Origin: a virus
Strand: one strand, 5' to 3'
IMG/VR virus record: IMGVR_UViG_3300025816_000006
Span: 98,691 to 162,690 of that record
Length of the DNA: 64,000 nucleotides
Part shown: in pieces, positions 7,889 to 64,000 of the stretch
Layout: the number at the start of each line of letters is the position of its first letter
How positions within the stretch are numbered: the stretch's first letter is position 1
Position numbers and translations under genes: made by a program
The notes under the pieces: model-generated
Told to the model about the DNA's origin: nothing
Database searches by the model: none
Seen by the model: only the letters and a program-made list of their open reading frames with translations

Positions 7889-8212
7889 TTATTCCTTATC
7901 TAAACAACCAAAGTCAAATTCATTAATTCTAAATATAATATCGTCACTAGCTTCTGTTTTCATAAAGCTGTTTCTAGCAGAGGCATAGACGGTCATCTTA
8001 GTGCCTTTCCTGCCAAGTTTAAAGATGGTCTCTGCGCCGCTAGCCCAAGCCTGCAAGGTTATTGTAGTGGGAACTTTCTTCTTTTCTCCACGTTTATTTT
8101 TACGATACTCGTAAGTTACCATTTTTACAGTGCAACAGGATGGTTCATCTGCATCGCTGTCTATCTGTGGGTCATGTAAAAGATACCCGGTAAAAGTGCA
8201 ATTATTCATCAA
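7889..8212 (-). CDS. ssb: single-stranded DNA-binding protein-like (OB fold, no acidic tail)
   Basis: NNCTFTGYL...AWASGAETI...KGTKM pattern of SSB. Confidence 0.6.
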   Translation of the reverse strand: MMNNCTFTGYLLHDPQIDSDADEPSCCTVKMVTYEYRKNKRGEKKKVPTTITLQAWASGAETIFKLGRKGTKMTVYASARNSFMKTEASDDIIFRINEFDFGCLDKE

Positions 8213-40250: not shown

Positions 40251-40325
40251 TGAGTGACGGGATTTGCACCCGCGAATCTAGTCTTGTCGATCTGTCTAAT
40301 CGCTCTAGGCTTCCGACTTCACTCA
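40251..40325 (-). ncRNA. tRNA-like element lacking a canonical D/anticodon arm
   Basis: TGAGTGA/TCACTCA closing stem; T-arm GCGGG-TGCAAAT-CCCGT. Confidence 0.5.
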
Positions 40326-40344
40326 TTTGTGCTACGATATAGTA

Positions 40345-40582
40345 AAGCCCCGTTTGGATAATAAGGACGAGGCGACTCCCCAGACAGCTTACGCTGCCAA
40401 TGCGAGACTTTCATCTGCAATTAAAAGGTTGATAGATTTTTAACGTAGCCCTTCTATCAACTACGGCATGAGATACATTACGTCATATTGTATGTCGAAT
40501 CTAAGTCATCCCCGTAAGTGGAGATGGAGGGAATTGCACCCTCGTCCATGACAACATCAATAATAATCTTTATACATGCTTG
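40345..40582 (-). ncRNA. ssrA: circularly permuted two-piece tmRNA; tag (A)ADESLALAA
   Basis: Acceptor piece (...GGACGAGGGTGCAATTCCCTCCATCTCCA, ends 40519) precedes GGGGATGACTTAGATTCGAC (starts 40513); G3-U70 pair; tag ORF 40418-40389; outer ends approximate. Confidence 0.9.
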
Positions 40583-40957
40583 TTAAAATGGCCCATCGTC
40601 TGCGCTATCATGAAATCTTGTGATAGCTTTCTCTAACGCTCCCTTAAACTTACCTGTAACAACATAAGAAAAACTACCGTCTGCTTCCACCATCTGCTCT
40701 AGCATCCCTTGGTGAAACATCATAAACAATTCTTCGCCAACATATTGCATGGCGACTTCTTTCATTTTTAGTATTGATGGCTTATCGTTCATTTCAAATT
40801 TCATTATGTTAAAGGAAACGCTTTCTGATTCTGGTCTTATATTCTCCACTTTATTCAAGTGGGACTTTGCTTTTCTCATAGTATCATACACGCCAAGTGG
40901 CTCAGAAACAACTCTTTCAGGCGTACTAATCAACATTTCTAATAAATATACTGTCAT
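40583..40957 (-). CDS. hypothetical protein
   Basis: ORF with RBS; ends DDGPF. Confidence 0.55.
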   Translation of the reverse strand: MTVYLLEMLISTPERVVSEPLGVYDTMRKAKSHLNKVENIRPESESVSFNIMKFEMNDKPSILKMKEVAMQYVGEELFMMFHQGMLEQMVEADGSFSYVVTGKFKGALEKAITRFHDSADDGPF

Positions 40958-55760: not shown

Positions 55761-56147
55761 TTATGTGTACATTTTACTATATTCAACAGAAAAGTCAACT
55801 GCTAAATTGTAAACACTTTCAAAAAATGACGCACGATTGAAAGCATCGTAAGCATCCGTAGGAGAATCACCCCAAGACATACCACCAGTGACGTTGAGTT
55901 CGTACCTCTCGCCCTTGTCATTGTAGGTGGTTATTGTGGTAGTCTCGCGACTAACAGTAGAACAAGAACTCTCAATATCTTCTAGTAGTTGTTCTAAACT
56001 ATAATCTTCGTCATCAAGACCGTACCACTCTTGAAACTCATCGGTTTCGCTGGCTGGAAGATTGATAATCAACTCGCGGAAACGCTCGCGGCGATCATCT
56101 GTCATGTCGAAGTAAGGAAAAGTCGCCAAAGTAAAGTCAGCACCCAT
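55761..56147 (-). CDS. hypothetical protein
   Basis: MGADF start after GGAG; TGGMSWGDSPT motif. Confidence 0.6.
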   Translation of the reverse strand: MGADFTLATFPYFDMTDDRRERFRELIINLPASETDEFQEWYGLDDEDYSLEQLLEDIESSCSTVSRETTTITTYNDKGERYELNVTGGMSWGDSPTDAYDAFNRASFFESVYNLAVDFSVEYSKMYT

Positions 56148-56288
56148 CGAAAATTCTCCAGTTTTTTGTGAAAATGTGTATAATATAGTGACGATTCGCG
56201 CCGTCACAACGATATATAATATAACTCCACTTTCTGAACCTGTCAAGGTTGTGCGAACAGATTGTGGGGTTTTTTTTATGGATTAACT

Positions 56289-56813
56289 ATGAATACTAAA
56301 ACCTGTACGAAATGTATAATTGAAAAACCAGCAACAACTGAATTTTTTGGTAAAATGCGGAGGGGGAAGTATGGGTTAGACTCAATGTGTAAATCCTGTA
56401 AATGTAAAGCTATGCGAATATACAAACAAAAACCAGAGGTGAAAAGTCGAAGAAACGAAATTGCTAAAGAAAGACGAAAAAATGATACACGTTTTAAAAT
56501 CTTGGGAAATTTAAGGACTCGCTTATACAATGCCATTAAAGGTAACGTAAAATCCGAACCAACTCTTAAACTTCTAGGTTGTACGGTTGAATATCTTGTG
56601 TCTCACCTAGAAAACCAGTTTGCAGAGGGGATGAATTGGGATAATTACGGTGAATGGCACGTTGACCACATTACGCCCTGCGCGTCATTTGATCTGTCAG
56701 ACCCCGAACAACAGAAGCGATGTTTTCACTACAGTAATCTTCAACCGCTTTGGGCGGAAGAAAACCTTTTAAAAAGCGACTCAATCACCTATCTGTCCAA
56801 ACACTGTCACTAA
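56289..56813 (+). CDS. HNH endonuclease with N-terminal zinc finger, inverted orientation
   Basis: CTKC...CKSC; WHVDHITPCASFDL...FHYSNLQPLWAEENLLKS. Confidence 0.85.
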   Translation: MNTKTCTKCIIEKPATTEFFGKMRRGKYGLDSMCKSCKCKAMRIYKQKPEVKSRRNEIAKERRKNDTRFKILGNLRTRLYNAIKGNVKSEPTLKLLGCTVEYLVSHLENQFAEGMNWDNYGEWHVDHITPCASFDLSDPEQQKRCFHYSNLQPLWAEENLLKSDSITYLSKHCH

Positions 56814-57054
56814 AAGTAAGTTTACCAAATTGTTCCCAACTGCCTTCCATTTTAACAGTTATCGGTTCTTTGTCAAGTGATTCCTCAACTTTTTTCTCAA
56901 GATTCTTGATCTTTTTCTTGAGATTATTTGTCTTGTCTCTTTCAGCGAGTACAAAGACTATTCCACAAATTAAGATCAACCATATCAATAAAATATGTAC
57001 CTCATTCCATACCCCAAACAGCCCTTCTTCTTTTTCATTCATATTTTGTCCCAC
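56785..57054 (-). CDS. small membrane protein
   Basis: TM plus coiled coil. Confidence 0.5.
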   Translation of the reverse strand: MGQNMNEKEEGLFGVWNEVHILLIWLILICGIVFVLAERDKTNNLKKKIKNLEKKVEESLDKEPITVKMEGSWEQFGKLTFSDSVWTDR

Positions 57055-57132
57055 AAATACCAGATAAAGTATCCTACTGTTAAAGCCTCGACCACAAACA
57101 ATACGTCAAGTATATCAAACTTATCGTCCATG

Positions 57133-57648
57133 TCAACCTTTATATTCAAAGATTCTTGCTACGCACTTACAATTTGCGCCACAAATCTTGCAGGGGAAAG
57201 CCTTGTTATGGTCTTTGTTCCAATATCCCCTAATATCGTCCCTTGGCTCGAATCCGTTATTCATTAGCATTTTTTGTGCAGGAACAACACCGTCCACAAA
57301 CCAAGCGTATGATTTGATGGTCTGAACATTTTGCTCTTGTAACCACTTTATTCTGTGTTTGACCATAGCATCCCCGAAACCTGATCTCGTCATGTTTACT
57401 ACAGAGGTTTTGAGGATTCCTAGCGATCCTTCTTGTTTAATTTGCACAGAACAGTAACCCCCAAGGAATTGCTGGCTAGGATAAACAGAATATGGAAGTT
57501 GGTCATTGTTAAGAAGAAACCATTGATGAATACTACTGTCCCAAGTTTGCTTGAAGAACATTCCCTCACCAAAAGTATCATCTACTAATTCCTCTGCCTG
57601 AATAGCATAATATATAGGTAGGTCTGATGGTACTTTAATTATCTTCAT
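57133..57648 (-). CDS. GNAT-like acetyltransferase
   Basis: VVNMTRSGFGDAMV, NGF, C-terminal CKICG..CKC. Confidence 0.65.
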   Translation of the reverse strand: MKIIKVPSDLPIYYAIQAEELVDDTFGEGMFFKQTWDSSIHQWFLLNNDQLPYSVYPSQQFLGGYCSVQIKQEGSLGILKTSVVNMTRSGFGDAMVKHRIKWLQEQNVQTIKSYAWFVDGVVPAQKMLMNNGFEPRDDIRGYWNKDHNKAFPCKICGANCKCVARIFEYKG

Positions 57649-57792
57649 CGTCTACAATTCCTAAACATAAGACCACTACTGTCAATAATACCGTTAAGCC
57701 AAACATCATTGAAAATGTTAATATGTTCACTCGCGCTCCTTGGTTCCTTGTAGTATGCCCCAATTATACTCTAAGTATCGTCTTTGTCAACT

Positions 57793-58047
57793 CTAATCTT
57801 TACTTCTTTTCCAAGAGAATAAATTGTTAAGCCACTTCTTTCTTTTATTACAATTACATTCTTTAAGATTAAACCATTCTTTGAATCTTTCTTGAGTGAT
57901 TCCCATATTTGTAAGTACACTTTCCACAACATCGCCCAAGCCCGTCATGTCCTCGCCGTGATTAAATTTGACTCCACGTTTTTCCAACTGATTGATTACT
58001 TCGTCCATTTCGTTTTTTATGTCTTGTTGTGGCATTTTTTTCTCCAT
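57793..58047 (-). CDS. conserved phage hypothetical protein
   Basis: GLGDVVE...CNCNKRKKWLN. Confidence 0.65.
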   Translation of the reverse strand: MEKKMPQQDIKNEMDEVINQLEKRGVKFNHGEDMTGLGDVVESVLTNMGITQERFKEWFNLKECNCNKRKKWLNNLFSWKRSKD

Positions 58048-58395
58048 TTTTCTTTTTTTTGTATTTTTTCTACAATTAGAGACATTTTACAGAGAACTAT
58101 ATCTCCATTGTATTATACACTTTGTGTTTGTCAAGAGGTAAAATCTCTATGTTTTAGTATAGATATATAACACACGCTTACTATACGAGAATGTACGTTT
58201 TCTTTATACTGTTAATACTACTGTATATATACTATGTACTAATACTACTATATAAGGAATAGAAGATGGTGATATGGAGATGTATTTATTAAGAATTGTA
58301 GATTACACCTCGTCCCCCTGCACCAAGCGATAAACATATTCATGTATATATGAAAATCATCAGTGTCTATAGGTGTATATCGGCATATATGTATA

Positions 58396-58725
58396 TCAGT
58401 CTATATTGTATTTGTCCTTTAGTATAATAGTAATCATATTTATATAGTAGTCTACTTGTGATGGAGTAAGCTCGACTCCAGTCTCGGCAAGCTCCCTTCG
58501 ATACCGCAAGCGTCTACTTGCGTCGAACGAGGCGAAATTCCTCATGGTCTTTGCCATATACTTACTGTTTATTAGTTTATATGTAGCAGAATACTTCTCA
58601 AAGAAATATATTAACTCATTTAATGATGGGTGATTTTGCTCGTTTTTATCACATAATTCATACATTTTTACCTTAAAATCATTATAATTTATCATTTTTG
58701 GGCCTTTTTCGCTGGCTATAGGCAT
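58396..58725 (-). CDS. hypothetical protein
   Basis: Plausible helical ORF; start uncertain. Confidence 0.45.
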   Translation of the reverse strand: MPIASEKGPKMINYNDFKVKMYELCDKNEQNHPSLNELIYFFEKYSATYKLINSKYMAKTMRNFASFDASRRLRYRRELAETGVELTPSQVDYYINMITIILKDKYNID

Positions 58726-58934
58726 CTTGGCGATCCGCTTTGATTAGATAAGACACTCCCCTGTTTGTATATATGTATTAGTATATACTATATAGTATAA
58801 TATACACTTATATGAATGTCAAGCAAAAACCGCTGACTGTTTACATAATTCCGATTTGTATATATTTGGTGAGACAAAACTCGAAAGCCGCTGACTGTAG
58901 GCATCTTGGCGATGTCTTTAGATAAGATAAGACA
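58711..58934. repeat. imperfect 45-bp direct repeat (58711-58755 and 58890-58934)
   Basis: Shared TAGGCATCTTGGCGAT and AGATAAGACA at identical spacing. Confidence 0.8.
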
Positions 58935-59195
58935 AATATGTCTTTTTTGGCTGACTCTACACAGACACACGATGGGCGCGGATCGGCAAAGACAGCCGCC
59001 CATAGTATTAGAATATCTTAATATAAGTATATGTGATAGTGACCAGACGTGTCAAGCGCAGCATTAGAGAATCTAATTATACCATTATATCGTCATATGT
59101 CAATACATACTTTACATAAACCGTTGATATATATAGACTTACAACGAATACATAAATATATATTTGAATGGTATGATATTTGCGTCTTGATTTGA

Positions 59196-59276
59196 CGTAA
59201 CCCTATGGTATGAAAGGACTTAGGGCGATGGGGGCGGCCCCGCCCGCCGTAAACCCTTACTGCGTAAGGACTTACG
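59196..59276. repeat. 81-bp tripartite palindromic element, copy 1
   Basis: 11-7-11 arm, 23-bp GC core, 11-7-11 arm. Confidence 0.9.
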
Positions 59277-59365
59277 TCAGAGCGCGAATCAGTCACCAGT
59301 CAGCCAGTACACCCAAATCCACAAAAATAAAATAATAAAAAAATGAATCATGTCAACCCCCAAGG

Positions 59366-59400
59366 TAGAAAATCCCGCACCCCCAACGGGGGGATGCGGG
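59366..59400 (-). terminator. rho-independent terminator
   Basis: CCCGCATCCCCC-CGTT-GGGGGTGCGGG-ATTTTCT. Confidence 0.75.
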
Positions 59401-59417
59401 TAACACACCTTGATCGA

Positions 59418-60308
59418 CTACGCAGCAGCAGCGAGAGCGAGCGTCTCAGCCGTTCTGACTGCTCTGTTGTCCGATGCCTTGAGGATACGGTCAAACTCGC
59501 CTTTGAACCCCTCACGCCTCGGAGCGTCCCACTGGTTGAACCCCTGAACGGCATTGTATGCCTCCCAAGCGGAAACCTCAAAACCTGAACCGATAGCAGG
59601 TCTGCCGGTCTTGATTCTCTCACGCTGCAAACGCTGGAAAATCTTTTCAGTGCGATTCTTGTGAATCGTTACCGCACGTTGACCAGCATCGGCATCCGGT
59701 TCTGGATACACAGCGTTCAGGAAGTCTACCATCTGAACGGGTGCTGCCTGCATACCGTGGACGAGATTCTCCAAGGTTTGCCAACCATCTTTCAGACTTT
59801 GAAACTGCCCAATCAGTTCATCCATCGCGAAACGCAACCCGCTAGTATGGCGGATCGACTGGTAAGTCTCGGAAACGCTGCGAAGCATTGCGAGATTTGA
59901 GCAAGCATCGCGATAAATGCCCAAAGTGACGTTGAACGCACTGCGATCATAACCGCCACGGATGATAAGACGAGGGAAAATGTTGTCGTTGGACCCATAA
60001 ATGGACCGGCGATAGTCGTCAGACGGTGCGATGGAAACATAGTGACCATTGCGGAAATGCGTCTTGACTTGTGATGCCTCGTCGAATACACTTTCGCAAG
60101 CGTCAACGAGAGCAACCACATCCTCCGTTTGGTGAGGAGTGTAACGGTCAGTAACCGAACCCTCCCCAACAACCTCGCTGGAATCGGATCGGAACATAGC
60201 GTACCAAGGTGTACGCATACCGTCAGGACCGGACAAGGGAAACTTGTCAACGGTGAAATCGAAAGCGGCAGCAACTTGGTCAGCAGCAGAAATAGTAGCG
60301 TTACTCAT
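59418..60308 (-). CDS. DUF932-family protein
   Basis: VTDRYTPHQT, GIYRDACSNL, SIRHTSG, SAWEAYNAVQG. Confidence 0.75.
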   Translation of the reverse strand: MSNATISAADQVAAAFDFTVDKFPLSGPDGMRTPWYAMFRSDSSEVVGEGSVTDRYTPHQTEDVVALVDACESVFDEASQVKTHFRNGHYVSIAPSDDYRRSIYGSNDNIFPRLIIRGGYDRSAFNVTLGIYRDACSNLAMLRSVSETYQSIRHTSGLRFAMDELIGQFQSLKDGWQTLENLVHGMQAAPVQMVDFLNAVYPEPDADAGQRAVTIHKNRTEKIFQRLQRERIKTGRPAIGSGFEVSAWEAYNAVQGFNQWDAPRREGFKGEFDRILKASDNRAVRTAETLALAAAA

Positions 60309-60457
60309 AGGAAAATCTCCAAAGGTGTGAAAAACAAAATCGTTCGTGTTATGCCCCCATTATACAGTATTCATCGTCCATGTCAACCCCCAAGCTACAA
60401 TCTTTTGTGGTATTTTGCCGGAAATCTTTTGGCACAGTATTTGCACTGGTGATTTGT

Positions 60458-60538
60458 CGTAAGTCGTTGCCACCAAAGGACTTAGGTCCGGCGGGGCGGC
60501 CCCAATCGCCGTAAGTACTTACAGCGAAAGGGTTTAGG
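60458..60538. repeat. 81-bp tripartite palindromic element, copy 2
   Basis: Same architecture. Confidence 0.9.
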
Positions 60539-61315
60539 TTAAAGGGCTAACTCTTTTTCCTTTTCCTTAATAAACGAATCAAGCAGAGAATAGTTGATCG
60601 TTTTCTGATCTTTATATCCAATGTTCCTAAGATCAAAGTCAAAACCGAACTTACAAGAATCTGAATAGTTTGTCTGAAGGCATAGGTTCATCGGCACACC
60701 TTGACCACTTTCTTTGTATGTTAGCAATTCATACACTGGATCACCAACACTTAGACTGAGCGCATTAGCGTATCTGCCAGCCGCATTGTTGGTAGACCAT
60801 CTTGCCGCTGGATGATGGTCACTGTAATCCCAAGTAGAATTAGAACGATCTGCACCACACCAATTTGACGCAAGAAAATAATCATCTGCTAAACTAGGTA
60901 CAAGTTGATCCCTGAGCCAATTTCTGTTTTCTAGAGTTGGTTCGCTACAGCTATCAATATACGCAAAATCAAAACCGTTTGGTGCATATTTCCTGAACGT
61001 ATCGTTACTTATTTTGTTCAGATCGTCACAGATAACAGTGACATTTTTGTATCCACGTTCTCTTAGGGTTGTGCGGATATGACCAGCAATCCGTCCCTTC
61101 TTTTCTACCGCTACAATATTTGTTCTCTTGCCTACCATTCTTAGCTTTTCCATAACTCTTAGGTCAAGCATACCAATAGAAGGCAAGATCAATAAATTCT
61201 TGATATTATATTGGGAGCCATAGTGGTGTTTTTTTCTGGCACACTTTACAATGTTAATTAGATTGTATGTTACTTGCTCTTTAATATCTCGCTGCTTTAG
61301 TGGGTTGTAATCCAC
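60539..61315 (-). CDS. putative SAM-dependent methyltransferase
   Basis: IVAVEK, ICDDL, FDFAYIDSC. Confidence 0.5.
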   Translation of the reverse strand: MDYNPLKQRDIKEQVTYNLINIVKCARKKHHYGSQYNIKNLLILPSIGMLDLRVMEKLRMVGKRTNIVAVEKKGRIAGHIRTTLRERGYKNVTVICDDLNKISNDTFRKYAPNGFDFAYIDSCSEPTLENRNWLRDQLVPSLADDYFLASNWCGADRSNSTWDYSDHHPAARWSTNNAAGRYANALSLSVGDPVYELLTYKESGQGVPMNLCLQTNYSDSCKFGFDFDLRNIGYKDQKTINYSLLDSFIKEKEKELAL

Positions 61316-61418
61316 GGTAATCTCCTTTTTGTAGTGTGTTAGTTATGCTTTAAGTATACAACTATTATCGTCACTGTCAAGCCTGAAGATTAAACTTTCT
61401 TGATAAATTGTAGATTGT

Positions 61419-61499
61419 CGTAAGTCGTTACTGTCAAAGGACTTATGGCTCGTCGGGCTGCCCCGCCGCACCTAAACCCTTACCACGTAAGGACTTAGG
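61419..61499. repeat. 81-bp tripartite palindromic element, copy 3
   Basis: Same architecture. Confidence 0.9.
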
Positions 61500-61580
61500 A
61501 CGACGAATGCTGATTAGTCAAACTCCCAAAAGCTACCCAAAAAAATCCATAAAATAATCATAATAAAAAATAATATCACA

Positions 61581-62369
61581 CTACACCCCTACAGTGGGGG
61601 TACTCTTTTTACTGTAGGAAAATTTAACTTTATTTTTCTTGAGTTCTCTGATTGCCTCGCTCGCCTTGCTTCCCTTGGGTTGTGTTCCGTGAATCAGTAG
61701 AGCGAACGAATTTTTACGCTGCGAAGGAATAGCGGCGTGTGAATCGTCGTGGTCGATGATCAAACCGAGATCGTCGGCCTGCTCTTGAGAATAAACCACG
61801 ATAGCCTCCCGTAGATTATGCTCGTCGATTTTGTGATCCAAGCGACCACCACGCGATGCCGTCAATACCAAGTTTTTTGGTAGGTGTGGCTCATCGTCTA
61901 GCCAGTAGTTGAGGGATTTTGTATAGGCATAGAATAAACGGTCTGGATTCCATTCTGCGACATATTGCCACGCTCGGAAATACTTTTGATTGAAGAAGTC
62001 GCCCGCAACGTGAATCCGGCAGATACCAAGATTTGCAGGCATAACGTCGGCAATCGCACAAGCCATATCGTAAGATGATCCCATAGATTTTAGGTCTATA
62101 AAGTTTGCCATTCTTTTGTTGTATACGTTGGGTAATAAAGCCTCTTGTGATGCAGAAAAACAACGAAACTCGCACTTCTTGCCGTCTTTGATTTTGCTCT
62201 TGCCGTTGATCTTGTGGACTTTTGACAGACAAGCCTCAGCTTGTGGGCATGACCACCCGCTGATTAGGTCAAAACTGTGAACCTTACGGTTATTCTGCAA
62301 CCAATATTGCAATTCGTCAACGCTGTGTAGTTGGTCAAGTTTGGCGTTTGCCTTAGAAAATTTAAGCAT
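61581..62369 (-). CDS. Gp88-family phage protein
   Basis: GWSCPQAEAC, CFSA, RIHVAGDFF, FYAYTKS. Confidence 0.75.
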   Translation of the reverse strand: MLKFSKANAKLDQLHSVDELQYWLQNNRKVHSFDLISGWSCPQAEACLSKVHKINGKSKIKDGKKCEFRCFSASQEALLPNVYNKRMANFIDLKSMGSSYDMACAIADVMPANLGICRIHVAGDFFNQKYFRAWQYVAEWNPDRLFYAYTKSLNYWLDDEPHLPKNLVLTASRGGRLDHKIDEHNLREAIVVYSQEQADDLGLIIDHDDSHAAIPSQRKNSFALLIHGTQPKGSKASEAIRELKKNKVKFSYSKKSTPTVGV

Positions 62370-62432
62370 TTTAACTCCGAGGTAGTGGTTGGTACTGTTC
62401 TATTTTATACTATATCGGCAGAATGTCAAGAC

Positions 62433-62855
62433 TTATTTACTTTTATGTGACATAATGTGAGAATCTTTTTCATCCACCCAAATATCCACGAATTTTGCAC
62501 TGGCAATGGGTTGTCCTGTTTCTCTTTCTTGGAAGGTGTCGGAGAAATAGGGATTATAATAACTTTCGGTCCATGTAAAACCCGCTTGCTTGTCGGTCTC
62601 ACGCACGTCAGCCAAATAGCCCTCAACGAACGCATGAACGTTTTTTCTTTTCTCATCCCTGACTCTCTTTTGTCCTGCCTTAGAAATTATAAACTTACAA
62701 TCCTTTAGAACTATGTTAGTAGTCCAACATTTTACGATCCCGCCCTGTTTTACGCTTATGCACTTGCGGTGAAGGTTACGATATACGCGAACCTTTTTGG
62801 TTGGGTCGATGTGCTGGATAACGTCGCGATTTGTTTCGCATACTGGTTTTTTCAT
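62433..62855 (-). CDS. conserved phage hypothetical protein
   Basis: VYRNLH...AGQKRVRDEKRKNVHAFVEG...YNPY. Confidence 0.75.
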   Translation of the reverse strand: MKKPVCETNRDVIQHIDPTKKVRVYRNLHRKCISVKQGGIVKCWTTNIVLKDCKFIISKAGQKRVRDEKRKNVHAFVEGYLADVRETDKQAGFTWTESYYNPYFSDTFQERETGQPIASAKFVDIWVDEKDSHIMSHKSK

Positions 62856-62942
62856 GTTTTCCTTTCGTGTTGTTGATACTCTCCCATTATACCCTTATAT
62901 CGTCAATGTCAATGGGTAAACTTTAGGAAATACAAGAATAGT

Positions 62943-63024
62943 TGTAAGTCGTTATAGAGAAAGGACTTACGTCGGGCGGGGGCCGCCCCGCCGCACCTAA
63001 ACCCTTGTCAGATAAGGACTTAGG
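62943..63024. repeat. 82-bp tripartite palindromic element, copy 4
   Basis: Same architecture, 24-bp core. Confidence 0.9.
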
Positions 63025-63031
63025 TCAAAAG

Positions 63032-63156
63032 TACCTCGCGAGGGAATCGAACCCCCGCGCCCCCCGCTAATCGCATCATGCACAACACTTTTAGCTTCGG
63101 ACTGTCCGCGAAACAGTCATCGGAATAACCCGCAGGCGACCCACCAAGGTCAAGGC
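63032..63156 (-). ncRNA. candidate tRNA-like RNA (T-arm, no clear cloverleaf)
   Basis: GGGGG-TTCGATT-CCCTC-GCGAGGT-A 3' end; internal hairpins. Confidence 0.4.
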
Positions 63157-63162
63157 GAATCA

Positions 63163-63241
63163 AAAAGAAAGAAGCGGCCATCTCTTGCACCGATACCCCG
63201 CAGGGCAGAGGGAAAGACTTACAGGATGACCGCCACTCTCC
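63163..63241 (-). terminator. long hairpin with U-tract
   Basis: GCGGTCATC...GATGGCCGC then TTCTTTCTTTTT. Confidence 0.5.
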
Positions 63242-63251
63242 ATTCACAACA

Positions 63252-63278
63252 CAACAACAACAACAACAACAACAACAA
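63252..63278. repeat. (CAA)9 microsatellite
   Basis: Directly visible, abutting a stop codon. Confidence 0.95.
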
Positions 63279-63482
63279 CTAGCTCAGACCGGCCACGATC
63301 TTGGACACGGAAAAGGACTTGTGAAGCCCGTTATCCTCTGCGACAGTGATACCCTTGCCGCTTGGACCGGTGAAGGATCGAACCTTCTTACCGTTTACCG
63401 TGCGGAGGACGTTCTTGTTCCCGTTGACAGGATACAAGAAAGAAACCTTGCGACCATTACGCTTGTTTGACAGATTAACCAT
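63279..63482 (-). CDS. small basic hypothetical protein
   Basis: GAGG RBS, coupled ORF. Confidence 0.55.
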   Translation of the reverse strand: MVNLSNKRNGRKVSFLYPVNGNKNVLRTVNGKKVRSFTGPSGKGITVAEDNGLHKSFSVSKIVAGLS

Positions 63483-63696
63483 TACTCAATACCTCTTTTT
63501 CTACAGTTGCGAATGTGAGAGACTGAACGCCAGCCTCACCAAGTACCTCAATTTTACCACGAAAAATGCCAGTTACAACACCTTTCTTCAATTTTGTGCC
63601 AAGTTTTACAACTGGCGTTTGTGGATCAACCATCCTCATTCTCCTTTTCGAGTTTTGCTGCTTCTGCCCTTGCTGCTTCCGCAGCTTCCTCGGCAC
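63475..63696 (-). CDS. hypothetical protein (start likely near 63639)
   Basis: AGGAG upstream of MRMVDP. Confidence 0.45.
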   Translation of the reverse strand: MPRKLRKQQGQKQQNSKRRMRMVDPQTPVVKLGTKLKKGVVTGIFRGKIEVLGEAGVQSLTFATVEKEVLSNG

Positions 63697-63880
63697 GATC
63701 TTTACGGATACGATCCGCTTTACTGTTTAGTGTCTCTGCTAGTGAGAGATACTGATCGTCTGTCATTGTAACACAGACTTCGTTCTGATCGGAATCGTTG
63801 AACGTCAGTGCTTTCCAGCCAGTGTAAGCGTGATCGAATTTTAACTCTACGGTAGTTTTGACTTTCATAAGTCTCTCCAA
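63626..63880 (-). CDS. hypothetical protein
   Basis: Downstream of the promoter at 63906. Confidence 0.55.
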   Translation of the reverse strand: MERLMKVKTTVELKFDHAYTGWKALTFNDSDQNEVCVTMTDDQYLSLAETLNSKADRIRKDRAEEAAEAARAEAAKLEKENEDG

Positions 63881-64000
63881 AAGGGGTTGTGAACTGAACT
63901 CTTCTATTATACTATACTTATCGGGCTTGTCAAGAAAAAACTTTAGAATCCATGTTGATATTTCTCAGGTAATTTGCAGTACCAAGACAGCATATCTTTC

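Follow-up and report, generated by a model that had tools for sequence, protein, structure and literature searches.

The stretch of DNA considered here (the window) is the last 64 kb of one viral contig, IMG/VR record IMGVR_UViG_3300025816_000006, which is 162,690 bp long and has a CheckV completeness of 98%. It carries four copies of an element of 81-82 bp, each composed of a palindrome with 11-bp arms and a 7-bp spacer (11-7-11), a GC-rich core of 23-24 bp and a second 11-7-11 palindrome; the core of each copy holds GGGGC-N-GCCCC or a near variant (Table 1). Direct reading of positions 58900-64000 bears out the four copies and the geometry reported in the initial annotation of this DNA, including the statement that the eight 7-nt spacers are all distinct (8/8) and constant in length. 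In the first copy, the core contains GGGGGCGGCCCC and the second hairpin is of the TAAACCCTT/AAGGACTTA type; pairing in its first hairpin is found at only 6 of the 11 arm positions. The pattern TAAGTCNTT-N7-AAGGACTTA, searched with up to 3 mismatches, recovers exactly the eight palindromes of these elements in the 64-kb window (15 strand matches). In shuffled sequences the same pattern gave 0.46 +/- 0.70 matches, and none of 100 shuffles reached 15. The annotation had also listed a ninth, solo palindrome. This site is present but weak, with 5 mismatches to the 18 specified bases and arms pairing at 5 of 9 positions, and YAANNNNTTGATW is matched at 59117. It is probably a decayed copy.

Read in the direction of transcription, each element comes after a gene or an RNA and before a promoter. 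A scan of the whole genome, which the initial annotation had proposed, found six further full elements, at genome positions 1279, 2677, 3984, 5249, 6542 and 7991, and no element in the remaining ~150 kb of the 162.7-kb genome. Since the contig has overlapping ends (~464 bp, 93.7% identity), the copies at the left end and those in the window join into a single array of ten copies, clustered in ~13 kb, with 0.96-1.9 kb between elements and all genes on the minus strand. The overlap itself (genome 1-464 against 162218-162690) is gapped; it could reflect imperfect closure of a circle or a terminal repeat that was put together from strain variants.

Table 1. Coordinates of the elements, cassette genes and transcription signals in the window
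Feature	Position	Strand	Description
Degenerate solo palindrome	59115-59143		between element 1 and the promoter at 59103
Element 1 (81 bp)	59196-59276		hairpin 1 (degenerate) 59196-59224, core 59225-59247, hairpin 2 59248-59276
Element 2 (81 bp)	60458-60538		hairpin 1 60458-60486, core 60487-60509, hairpin 2 (flipped variant) 60510-60538
Element 3 (81 bp)	61419-61499		hairpin 1 61419-61447, core 61448-61470, hairpin 2 61471-61499
Element 4 (82 bp)	62943-63024		hairpin 1 62943-62971, core 62972-62995, hairpin 2 62996-63024
Early promoter after element 1 and the solo site	59076-59103	minus	TTGACA-16-TATAAT, 12/12 matches
Early promoter after element 2	60359-60386	minus	TTGACA-16-TATAAT, 12/12 matches; gap ~73 nt
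Early promoter after element 3	61353-61380	minus	TTGACA-16-TATACT; 40 nt from the palindrome (40-42 class)
Early promoter after element 4	62886-62912	minus	TTGACA, 15 nt, TATAAT; 32 nt from the 25-bp palindrome (30-32 class)
Intrinsic terminator	59374-59400		follows the DUF932 gene
Cassette gene	59418-60308	minus	DUF932 family
Cassette gene	60539-61315	minus	258 aa, without family match
Cassette gene	61581-62369	minus	GP88 family (PF17338)
Cassette gene	62433-62855	minus	Phage_L5_gp82 family (PF25735)

Occurrence in viruses and bacterial genomes

The core of the family is the 25-bp palindrome TAAGTC(S)TT-N7-AA(S)GACTTA. Its exact 18-base pattern, TAAGTCGTT-N7-AAGGACTTA, was found in IMG/VR (at least 119 stretches) and in GTDB genomes (at least 120 stretches, with ~17 expected by chance in the 596 Gbp of GTDB sequence). 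The GTDB matches listed are mostly from Planctomycetota (Pirellulales, Planctomycetaceae, Phycisphaerae and Gemmataceae), and the others listed are small phage-like contigs binned into other metagenome-assembled genomes (MAGs). The retrieved viral loci, many of which are the ends of large contigs, amount to 1.05 Mb and contain 726 palindromes and 289 doublets; the start-to-start spacing of the doublets falls into three classes, 41-42, 49-50 and 52-53 bp. The annotation had not recognised the element as a described one, and the searches agree: there was no match in an Rfam scan of positions 56000-64000 at E <= 1, no similarity by blastn of the 7-kb region and of one element to 50,697 deposited phage genomes, and a full-text literature search for the arm strings returned unrelated primers only.

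Complete or large planctomycete assemblies hold 4-12 copies of the palindrome each, and the reversed-pattern control gives 0. Seven chromosomal copies lie 0-4 nt past the 3′ end of a tRNA, tRNA-Sec or tmRNA gene and are junctions of integrated elements. On one contig (L149), an integrase open reading frame (ORF) ends within the 7-nt loop of the palindrome, where its stop codon lies, and the palindrome arm encodes the C-terminal K-S-L of the protein. This palindrome, the sole copy in a 4.1-Mb assembly, belongs to a 30-kb integrative element, where it separates the 3′ end of the integrase gene from the tRNA att core; the 28-bp direct repeat covering the tRNA 3′ end is found again 30.4 kb away. 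A homologous integrase (38% identity) from another family shows the same palindrome arrangement. The two integrases (L149, 4602-5983, and L192, 2235-3943) belong to planctomycete integrative elements at tRNA-Glu, with K-S-L derived from the palindrome arm.

Further chromosomal copies are found beside IS1595 and IS66 transposase genes and between the prophage genes terS and dnaB; others lie within a 120-bp dispersed repeat of one Phycisphaerae MAG or between ordinary host genes. No gene recurs beside the chromosomal copies, the neighbours being as mixed as trpE, ABC transporters, IS1595, IS66 and terS/dnaB. In the Phycisphaerae MAG JTS-RE133, the palindrome is located inside the ~120-bp dispersed repeat on contigs L162, L126, L176, L199 and others, and in a Planctomycetaceae MAG it is located at the edge of a contig-ending repeat (L124, L125, L129, L168 and L184). 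These dispersed repeats are probably miniature inverted-repeat transposable elements (MITEs) or ends of insertion sequences (ISs). Finally, one Latescibacterota genome contains 32 palindrome copies, each forming part of a larger multicopy unit of ~465 bp (for example, L135, 3580-4060). The unit consists of a run of 13-17 G, a palindrome with an identical GTTTTTC spacer, and 37-bp tandem repeats with GGGGGCCGCCCC; the latter sequence resembles the GC core of the phage element. Overall, the palindrome is mainly a feature of mobile DNA in Planctomycetota.

Sequence conservation, polarity and promoter phasing

In hundreds of contigs the arm sequence TAAGTC(S)TT is retained next to variable 7-nt spacers. 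Pairing between the arms is not what is conserved. In a covariation test of 323 doublets, local arm pairing scored 16.04 of 22 against 15.99 for cross pairing, with no compensatory signal. With wobble pairs allowed, the sense strand has no advantage over the antisense strand (7.13 versus 7.28 of 9), and the wobble pairs themselves show no bias towards it (favoured strand, 42 versus 47). The lack of an Rfam match together with this lack of covariation speaks against a structured RNA family of the Rfam type. The predicted folds of the elements are stable (-16 to -39 kcal/mol), and RNAfold cannot choose among them because the three-hairpin form and a single long hairpin are nearly iso-energetic. 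A terminator scan reported none of the elements. They have no adjoining U-tract on either strand, the flanks being CGAC/TCAG and similar, and on that ground they do not qualify as intrinsic terminators.

The GC core had been regarded in the initial annotation as a central operator, and here the comparison across phages went against it: the core is GC-rich throughout (83%) but variable in sequence. As a conserved hairpin it was rejected, with a mean minimum free energy of -8.83 versus -8.78 for shuffles. Centred palindromes in the core are modestly in excess (stems of at least 6 in 23% versus 14%; centred in 70% versus 37%).

The arms contain a preferred mismatch. Arm position 7 forms a C.C or G.G mismatch in 57% of 602 sites, and GTCC/GTCG hetero-sites outnumber the symmetric combinations by 162 to 11. 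By virtue of this mismatch each palindrome has a polarity. The polarity is the same in both palindromes of a doublet (78 doublets), and opposite pairs are missing from the 12 commonest classes. It is also related to transcription: the C-strand is the sense strand in 103 versus 26 of the 129 orientable sites (41 versus 15 loci), and in 66 versus 10 of the 76 promoter-proximal sites, oriented by their downstream promoter. These comparative statistics favour a DNA-level site, presumably recognised by a protein, over an RNA hairpin.

In the phage genome, ~32 near-consensus sigma-70 promoters (TTGACA, 16-17 nt, TATAAT) are present on the minus strand within a block of ~17 kb (window 56800-64000 plus genome 1-10000), and the same block has a single good intrinsic terminator, at 59374-59400. 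Many of these promoters show extended spacer similarity to one another and have a run of G/C just 5′ of the -35 hexamer. As the annotation had stated, a TTGACA promoter lies near every element of the window, with -35 hexamers ~30, 38, 71 and 92 nt away on the minus strand. The gap from the last base of the 25-bp palindrome to the -35 hexamer was taken from 230 cases with a promoter within 250 nt downstream of the element. The gaps peak at 17-20, 30-32, 40-42 and 47-52 nt, and, of all elements with a promoter inside 250 nt, 43% have a gap in one of these 17-52-nt classes. For the 118 spacers left after removal of near-identical ones, the phasing is helical, with a period of 10.75-11 bp (vector strength 0.52, Rayleigh p ~4e-14). 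A typical gap is made up of a conserved CGACAATT-like junction and 1-4 phased A-tract units, with a run of G4 or C4 ahead of TTGACA. Among the ten copies in this genome, four belong to the distance classes, namely window 62943 (32 nt), window 61419 (40), genome 2677 (41) and genome 5249 (49). Such phasing would be expected of a protein site working with RNA polymerase or with curved upstream DNA. Together with the 66:10 polarity, it upholds the suggestion of the annotation that a repeated architecture is read at the level of DNA and is coupled to early promoters.

At a distance of 41 nt to the right of the element at 7991-8072 is a site that resembles a plus-strand promoter (TTGACA, 15 nt, TACAAT; genome 8070-8140). 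It falls into the 40-42-nt class on the opposite side, and therefore some elements may serve divergent promoters.

The other side of the element is related to the preceding gene. Of 157 oriented elements, 19 supply the stop codon of the upstream ORF with the TAA of the palindrome (control 0), and in 50 this ORF ends within -13 to +10 nt of the element (control 17); the start of the next ORF peaks 61-120 nt downstream. The module thus fills the space between a stop codon and the upstream region of the next promoter. In the window, element 2 is directly abutted by the stop codon of the 258-aa ORF (60539-60541), and a minus-strand tRNA-like RNA (T-arm 63037-63059) has its 3′ end ~6 nt before element 4.

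Elements are also places where related phages differ. In contig L175, the left flank and promoter of one element are those of the 5249 unit, and from the core onwards, through the second palindrome to the right flank, the element is that of the 2677 unit. L175 and the present phage accordingly differ by two cassettes (2.6 kb), with the crossover inside the element. In another relative (L021), blocks at 81-94% identity are arranged in a different order. In more distant phages, only the ~150-bp stretch of element and promoter can be aligned (72-79% identity), and the flanking genes are different. Module differences at element boundaries, of the kind that the annotation had proposed to look for among relatives, are seen in both L175 and L021.

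Another trace is visible at window 59329-59400, where the terminator is directly followed by a truncated copy of the 60386 promoter: the 22 nt at 59349-59370 are 91% identical to 60379-60400, with an intact -35 and a -10 degraded to TATTTT. By analogy with the "degraded PeSLs" of T4-type phages, the truncated promoter looks like a scar of a past cassette exchange.

The surroundings of the array have several other features. Upstream of element 4, the minus-strand non-coding block at 63030-63278 contains nine TTG repeats (63252-63278), hairpins and the tRNA-like 3′ end, which has a canonical T-arm and is not called as a tRNA by ARAGORN. Five tRNA genes are present in the window in all, and a permuted tmRNA (40298-40612; tag ADESLALAA, ARAGORN) lies beside a tRNA-Glu. 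On the far side of the array, the genes change to the plus strand at a divergent promoter pair (genome 9941/9958), and the first of them encode two sigma-like proteins. The two adjacent ORFs (L001, genome 10758-12042) weakly match region 2 (E 9.5e-5) and region 4 (E 2.5e-3) of sigma-70 and may represent a split or paired phage sigma factor. This pair is kept in ~22 related contigs, and the genes after it encode a GDP-mannose 4,6-dehydratase and a small HNH protein.

Possible role of the element

The best-supported interpretation of these observations is that the element is a polar double operator, forming the upstream part of a portable early-promoter cassette and also the 3′ boundary of the preceding cassette, and that cassettes are exchanged at this point. 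To the more specific claim that it is a DNA-level docking module for a protein, and not primarily an RNA structure, we would give about an even chance on the basis of the comparative data. Each 11-7-11 palindrome would be a sequence-specific, slightly asymmetric site for a putative protein, most likely a host-encoded architectural or transcription factor of Planctomycetota, and the two palindromes would flank a GC-rich spacer of discrete length. The module would occupy the stretch from the stop codon of a cassette to the upstream A-tract region of the next consensus sigma-70 promoter, on a fixed helix face relative to the -35 hexamer. Once bound, it would set the upstream architecture of the promoter by activation or bending, and/or insulate the promoter against read-through polymerases coming from the preceding strong promoter. 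Since the ~150-bp composite of module and promoter recurs between unrelated genes and in relatives, it may also serve as a joint for gain, loss and swapping of cassettes.

The searches for a binding protein are consistent with a factor supplied by the host. In the 98%-complete phage genome, a six-frame search detected no tyrosine recombinase (PF00589), and neither HU/IHF nor a match to Y1 transposase (PF01797) was found. In an all-against-all comparison of 3,448 ORFs, no protein family occurs in more than 22 of the 120 element-bearing loci; the top shared families near the arrays are the sigma-like proteins, the GDP-mannose dehydratase and the HNH protein, all of them from one clade. The lack of a partner encoded near the element fits a host factor, and a host protein is also the economical guess, given that very different phages, prophages and ISs of one phylum use the same site. 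The annotation had drawn attention to IHF. The arm CAACGACTTA does fit the IHF core CAANNNNTTR, as does the promoter-proximal arm (C 57%)AACGACTTA, and the IHF consensus WATCAANNNNTTR, which in IHF sites goes with an upstream A/T tract, is matched in full at 59117 and in some phage clades; however, the WAT positions of WATC are not conserved, and the phage has no HU/IHF of its own. The IHF consensus of planctomycetes may differ, and we regard the partial fit as a lead.

Several points weigh against a polar double operator. No binding protein emerged from these searches, and it is from the pattern of conservation that we infer protein binding at all. In this genome, 6 of the 10 gaps fall outside the main distance classes (~73, 94, 109, 110 and 174 nt, and 28 nt at copy 1279, with the -35 at 1248). 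The quantised distances could also result from A-tract units of 10-11 nt by themselves, or from shared ancestry of the composites, without any contact with polymerase. The palindrome-to-palindrome spacing (42, 50 or 53 bp) is not always a whole number of helical turns. The module is present at only 10 of the ~32 early promoters of the phage, and therefore it is not required for early promoter activity as such. In host genomes, 4-12 full sites are few for a global architectural protein, and the half-site is only ~2-3-fold above control.

The element might act in RNA instead, as a 3′-end signal in which three adjacent stem-loops terminate transcription, act as RNase III cleavage sites, or protect the mRNA or tRNA-like RNA upstream of them against 3′ exonucleases, much like the stem-loops of PeSLs (promoter-early stem-loops, the stem-loop and early-promoter units of T4-type phages) or the early RNase III sites of T7. 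We consider this unlikely, but much of the evidence is compatible with it: the elements are on the 3′ side of genes, with the stop codons and the tRNA-like 3′ end as close to them as described above, the predicted folds are stable, and ~32 promoters are served by a single good intrinsic terminator. On the other hand, U-tracts, covariation and an Rfam match are all lacking, the sense strand pairs no better than the antisense strand, and a C.C mismatch is even preferred on the sense strand. Elements 1 and 3 already have a GC hairpin and a T-rich tract ahead of them, and helical phasing to the -35 is not expected of an RNA signal. The two roles may be combined. According to a preprint, palindromes of terminators that immediately precede promoters can also be sites for transcription factors (10.64898/2026.08.19.745784), which makes a dual role of the element, in DNA and in RNA, possible.

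Recombination offers another explanation, which seems to us doubtful at best. The palindromes would be core-type sites, attC-like or with the tolerance of spacer mismatches known from Tn916, for a recombinase acting in trans, or else MITE- or REP-like mobile units, and the array would be a phage analogue of an integron cassette array. The lambda-type core geometry (9-bp inverted repeats around 7 bp), the array of ~1.3-kb cassettes in one orientation, the stop codons within the element, as in attC, the two-cassette indel bounded by elements with a crossover inside one of them, and the proximity of copies to integrase genes, att cores and ISs are all consistent with such a site; the asymmetric mismatch also recalls the strand-selecting features of attC and of IS200/IS605 hairpins. 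The resemblance to tyrosine-recombinase core sites, which was pointed out in the initial annotation, is nevertheless one of geometry (arms of 9-11 bp, 7-bp spacer). The spacers differ in all 20 palindromes, and differing spacers block ordinary exchange by a tyrosine recombinase. The phage has neither a tyrosine recombinase nor a Y1 transposase, the sampled host Y1 transposase genes are not flanked by the palindrome, and in the integrative element it is the tRNA 3′ end, and not the palindrome spacer, that holds the duplicated att core. Moreover, the cassettes have their own promoters, and the phasing to these promoters would be left unexplained. It is very improbable, finally, that the composite is a passive linker with no molecular function, kept only for homologous shuffling of cassettes among co-infecting phages. 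PeSLs have been interpreted in this way, and the ~150-bp homology blocks are common to phages with different flanking genes. However, identity extends over only 9-11 bp at a time, interrupted by variable spacers and cores, and such short runs would serve homologous recombination poorly; conserved arms with variable spacers, preferred mismatch, polarity and phasing would also have no explanation.

Returning to the polar double operator, its most far-reaching version would be a portable "plug-in" module shared by the phages, prophages and ISs of Planctomycetota. Such a module, read by one conserved host protein and phased to the promoter, would give new cassettes instant expression and insulation, and would be at the same time the joint of an integron-like exchange network that works without an integrase. 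This is an attractive scheme, but at present we think it improbable.

Almost nothing is known about gene control in planctomycete phages and their hosts, and the 25-bp site provides a concrete handle. It can be used as bait for its putative reader protein, as a natural part for planctomycete expression constructs, and as a marker for assigning uncultured phages to Planctomycetota.

Comparison with known systems

The closest described thing is the PeSL of T4-type phages, and the closest in anatomy are doublets of repetitive extragenic palindromes (REPs) and bacterial interspersed mosaic elements (BIMEs); the element is a member of neither. A PeSL is a terminator stem-loop joined to a consensus early promoter (TTGACA-N17-TATAAT). 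PeSLs mediate indels, and they are repeated between small accessory genes in plastic regions, at the breakpoints of indels and replacements (PMC2839356, PMC4122927). Likewise, the present element is found 30-92 nt upstream of TTGACA/TATAAT promoters, is repeated in a plastic region, and lies at breakpoints between relatives (L175 and L021). In contrast, the stem-loops of PeSLs are single and simple, with a sequence that varies by phage group, whereas here an 81-bp double palindrome surrounds a GC core and there is no U-tract. The arm sequence is constant over hundreds of contigs and integrative elements, with a preferred mismatch, polarity and phasing, and without covariation. Nor does the element come from T4-type myoviruses; it has no similarity to deposited phage genomes. 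The idea behind PeSLs, that regulatory cassettes double as shuffling joints, thereby reaches beyond T4-type coliphages into a much larger group of phages unrelated to them, in which the upstream part is more elaborate and more conserved than in PeSLs.

REPs and BIMEs, including the IHF-containing RIP/RIB elements, are also imperfect intergenic palindromes after genes, often arranged in doublets with short spacers, and they share with the element stems that open with A-T pairs and CG/CGTC flanks (PMC3733652). CGTC-tagged REPs have an 8-9-bp stem, a 4-5-nt loop, an unpaired CGTC tag and a CCA-like tail (PMC3733652). Here, the loop has 7 nt, and the CG/CGTC flank is included in the palindrome (GACG...CGTC) and is not an unpaired tag. 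REP doublets are mostly head-to-head, whereas both sites of the element share the same polarity. REPs occur in tens to thousands per chromosome, compared with 4-12 per planctomycete genome, and the central part of the element is GC-rich and not an IHF site. Six Y1_Tnp loci were sampled from five host genomes for an association of the RAYT type, and none was flanked by the palindrome; on this evidence, the element is not a REP/RAYT system.

Known upstream sites for activators or architectural proteins that are phased to promoters include class I CRP sites, the Fis sites of rrn P1, and IHF at lambda pL and attP. By analogy, the element could belong to this kind of site, with (quasi-)palindromes at integral helical turns 5′ of the -35 and A-tract or UP-like DNA in between. 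In the integrative elements, the palindrome beside the att core may similarly recall H′ and the host-factor sites of lambda attP. However, there is no consensus match to CRP, Fis or IHF sites beyond the partial fit to the IHF core; in addition, the half-sites are 16-19 bp apart, centre to centre, and the sites are paired around a GC core. With integron attC and lambda core sites, the element shares inverted repeats around a 7-bp spacer, cassettes in a single orientation, internal stop codons and an asymmetry that marks the strand. In contrast to attC, no IntI is found, the R′/R″ boxes (RYYYAAC/GTTRRRY) are absent, the outer ends are CGTAAGTC, and the cassettes carry their own promoters; on these grounds the array is not an integron. 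In contrast to both attC and lambda core sites, the att duplication is outside the palindrome. The element is unlike all of these systems in its tripartite fixed geometry, in the conservation of its arms across a phage-host group, and in its preferred mismatch, polarity and phasing.

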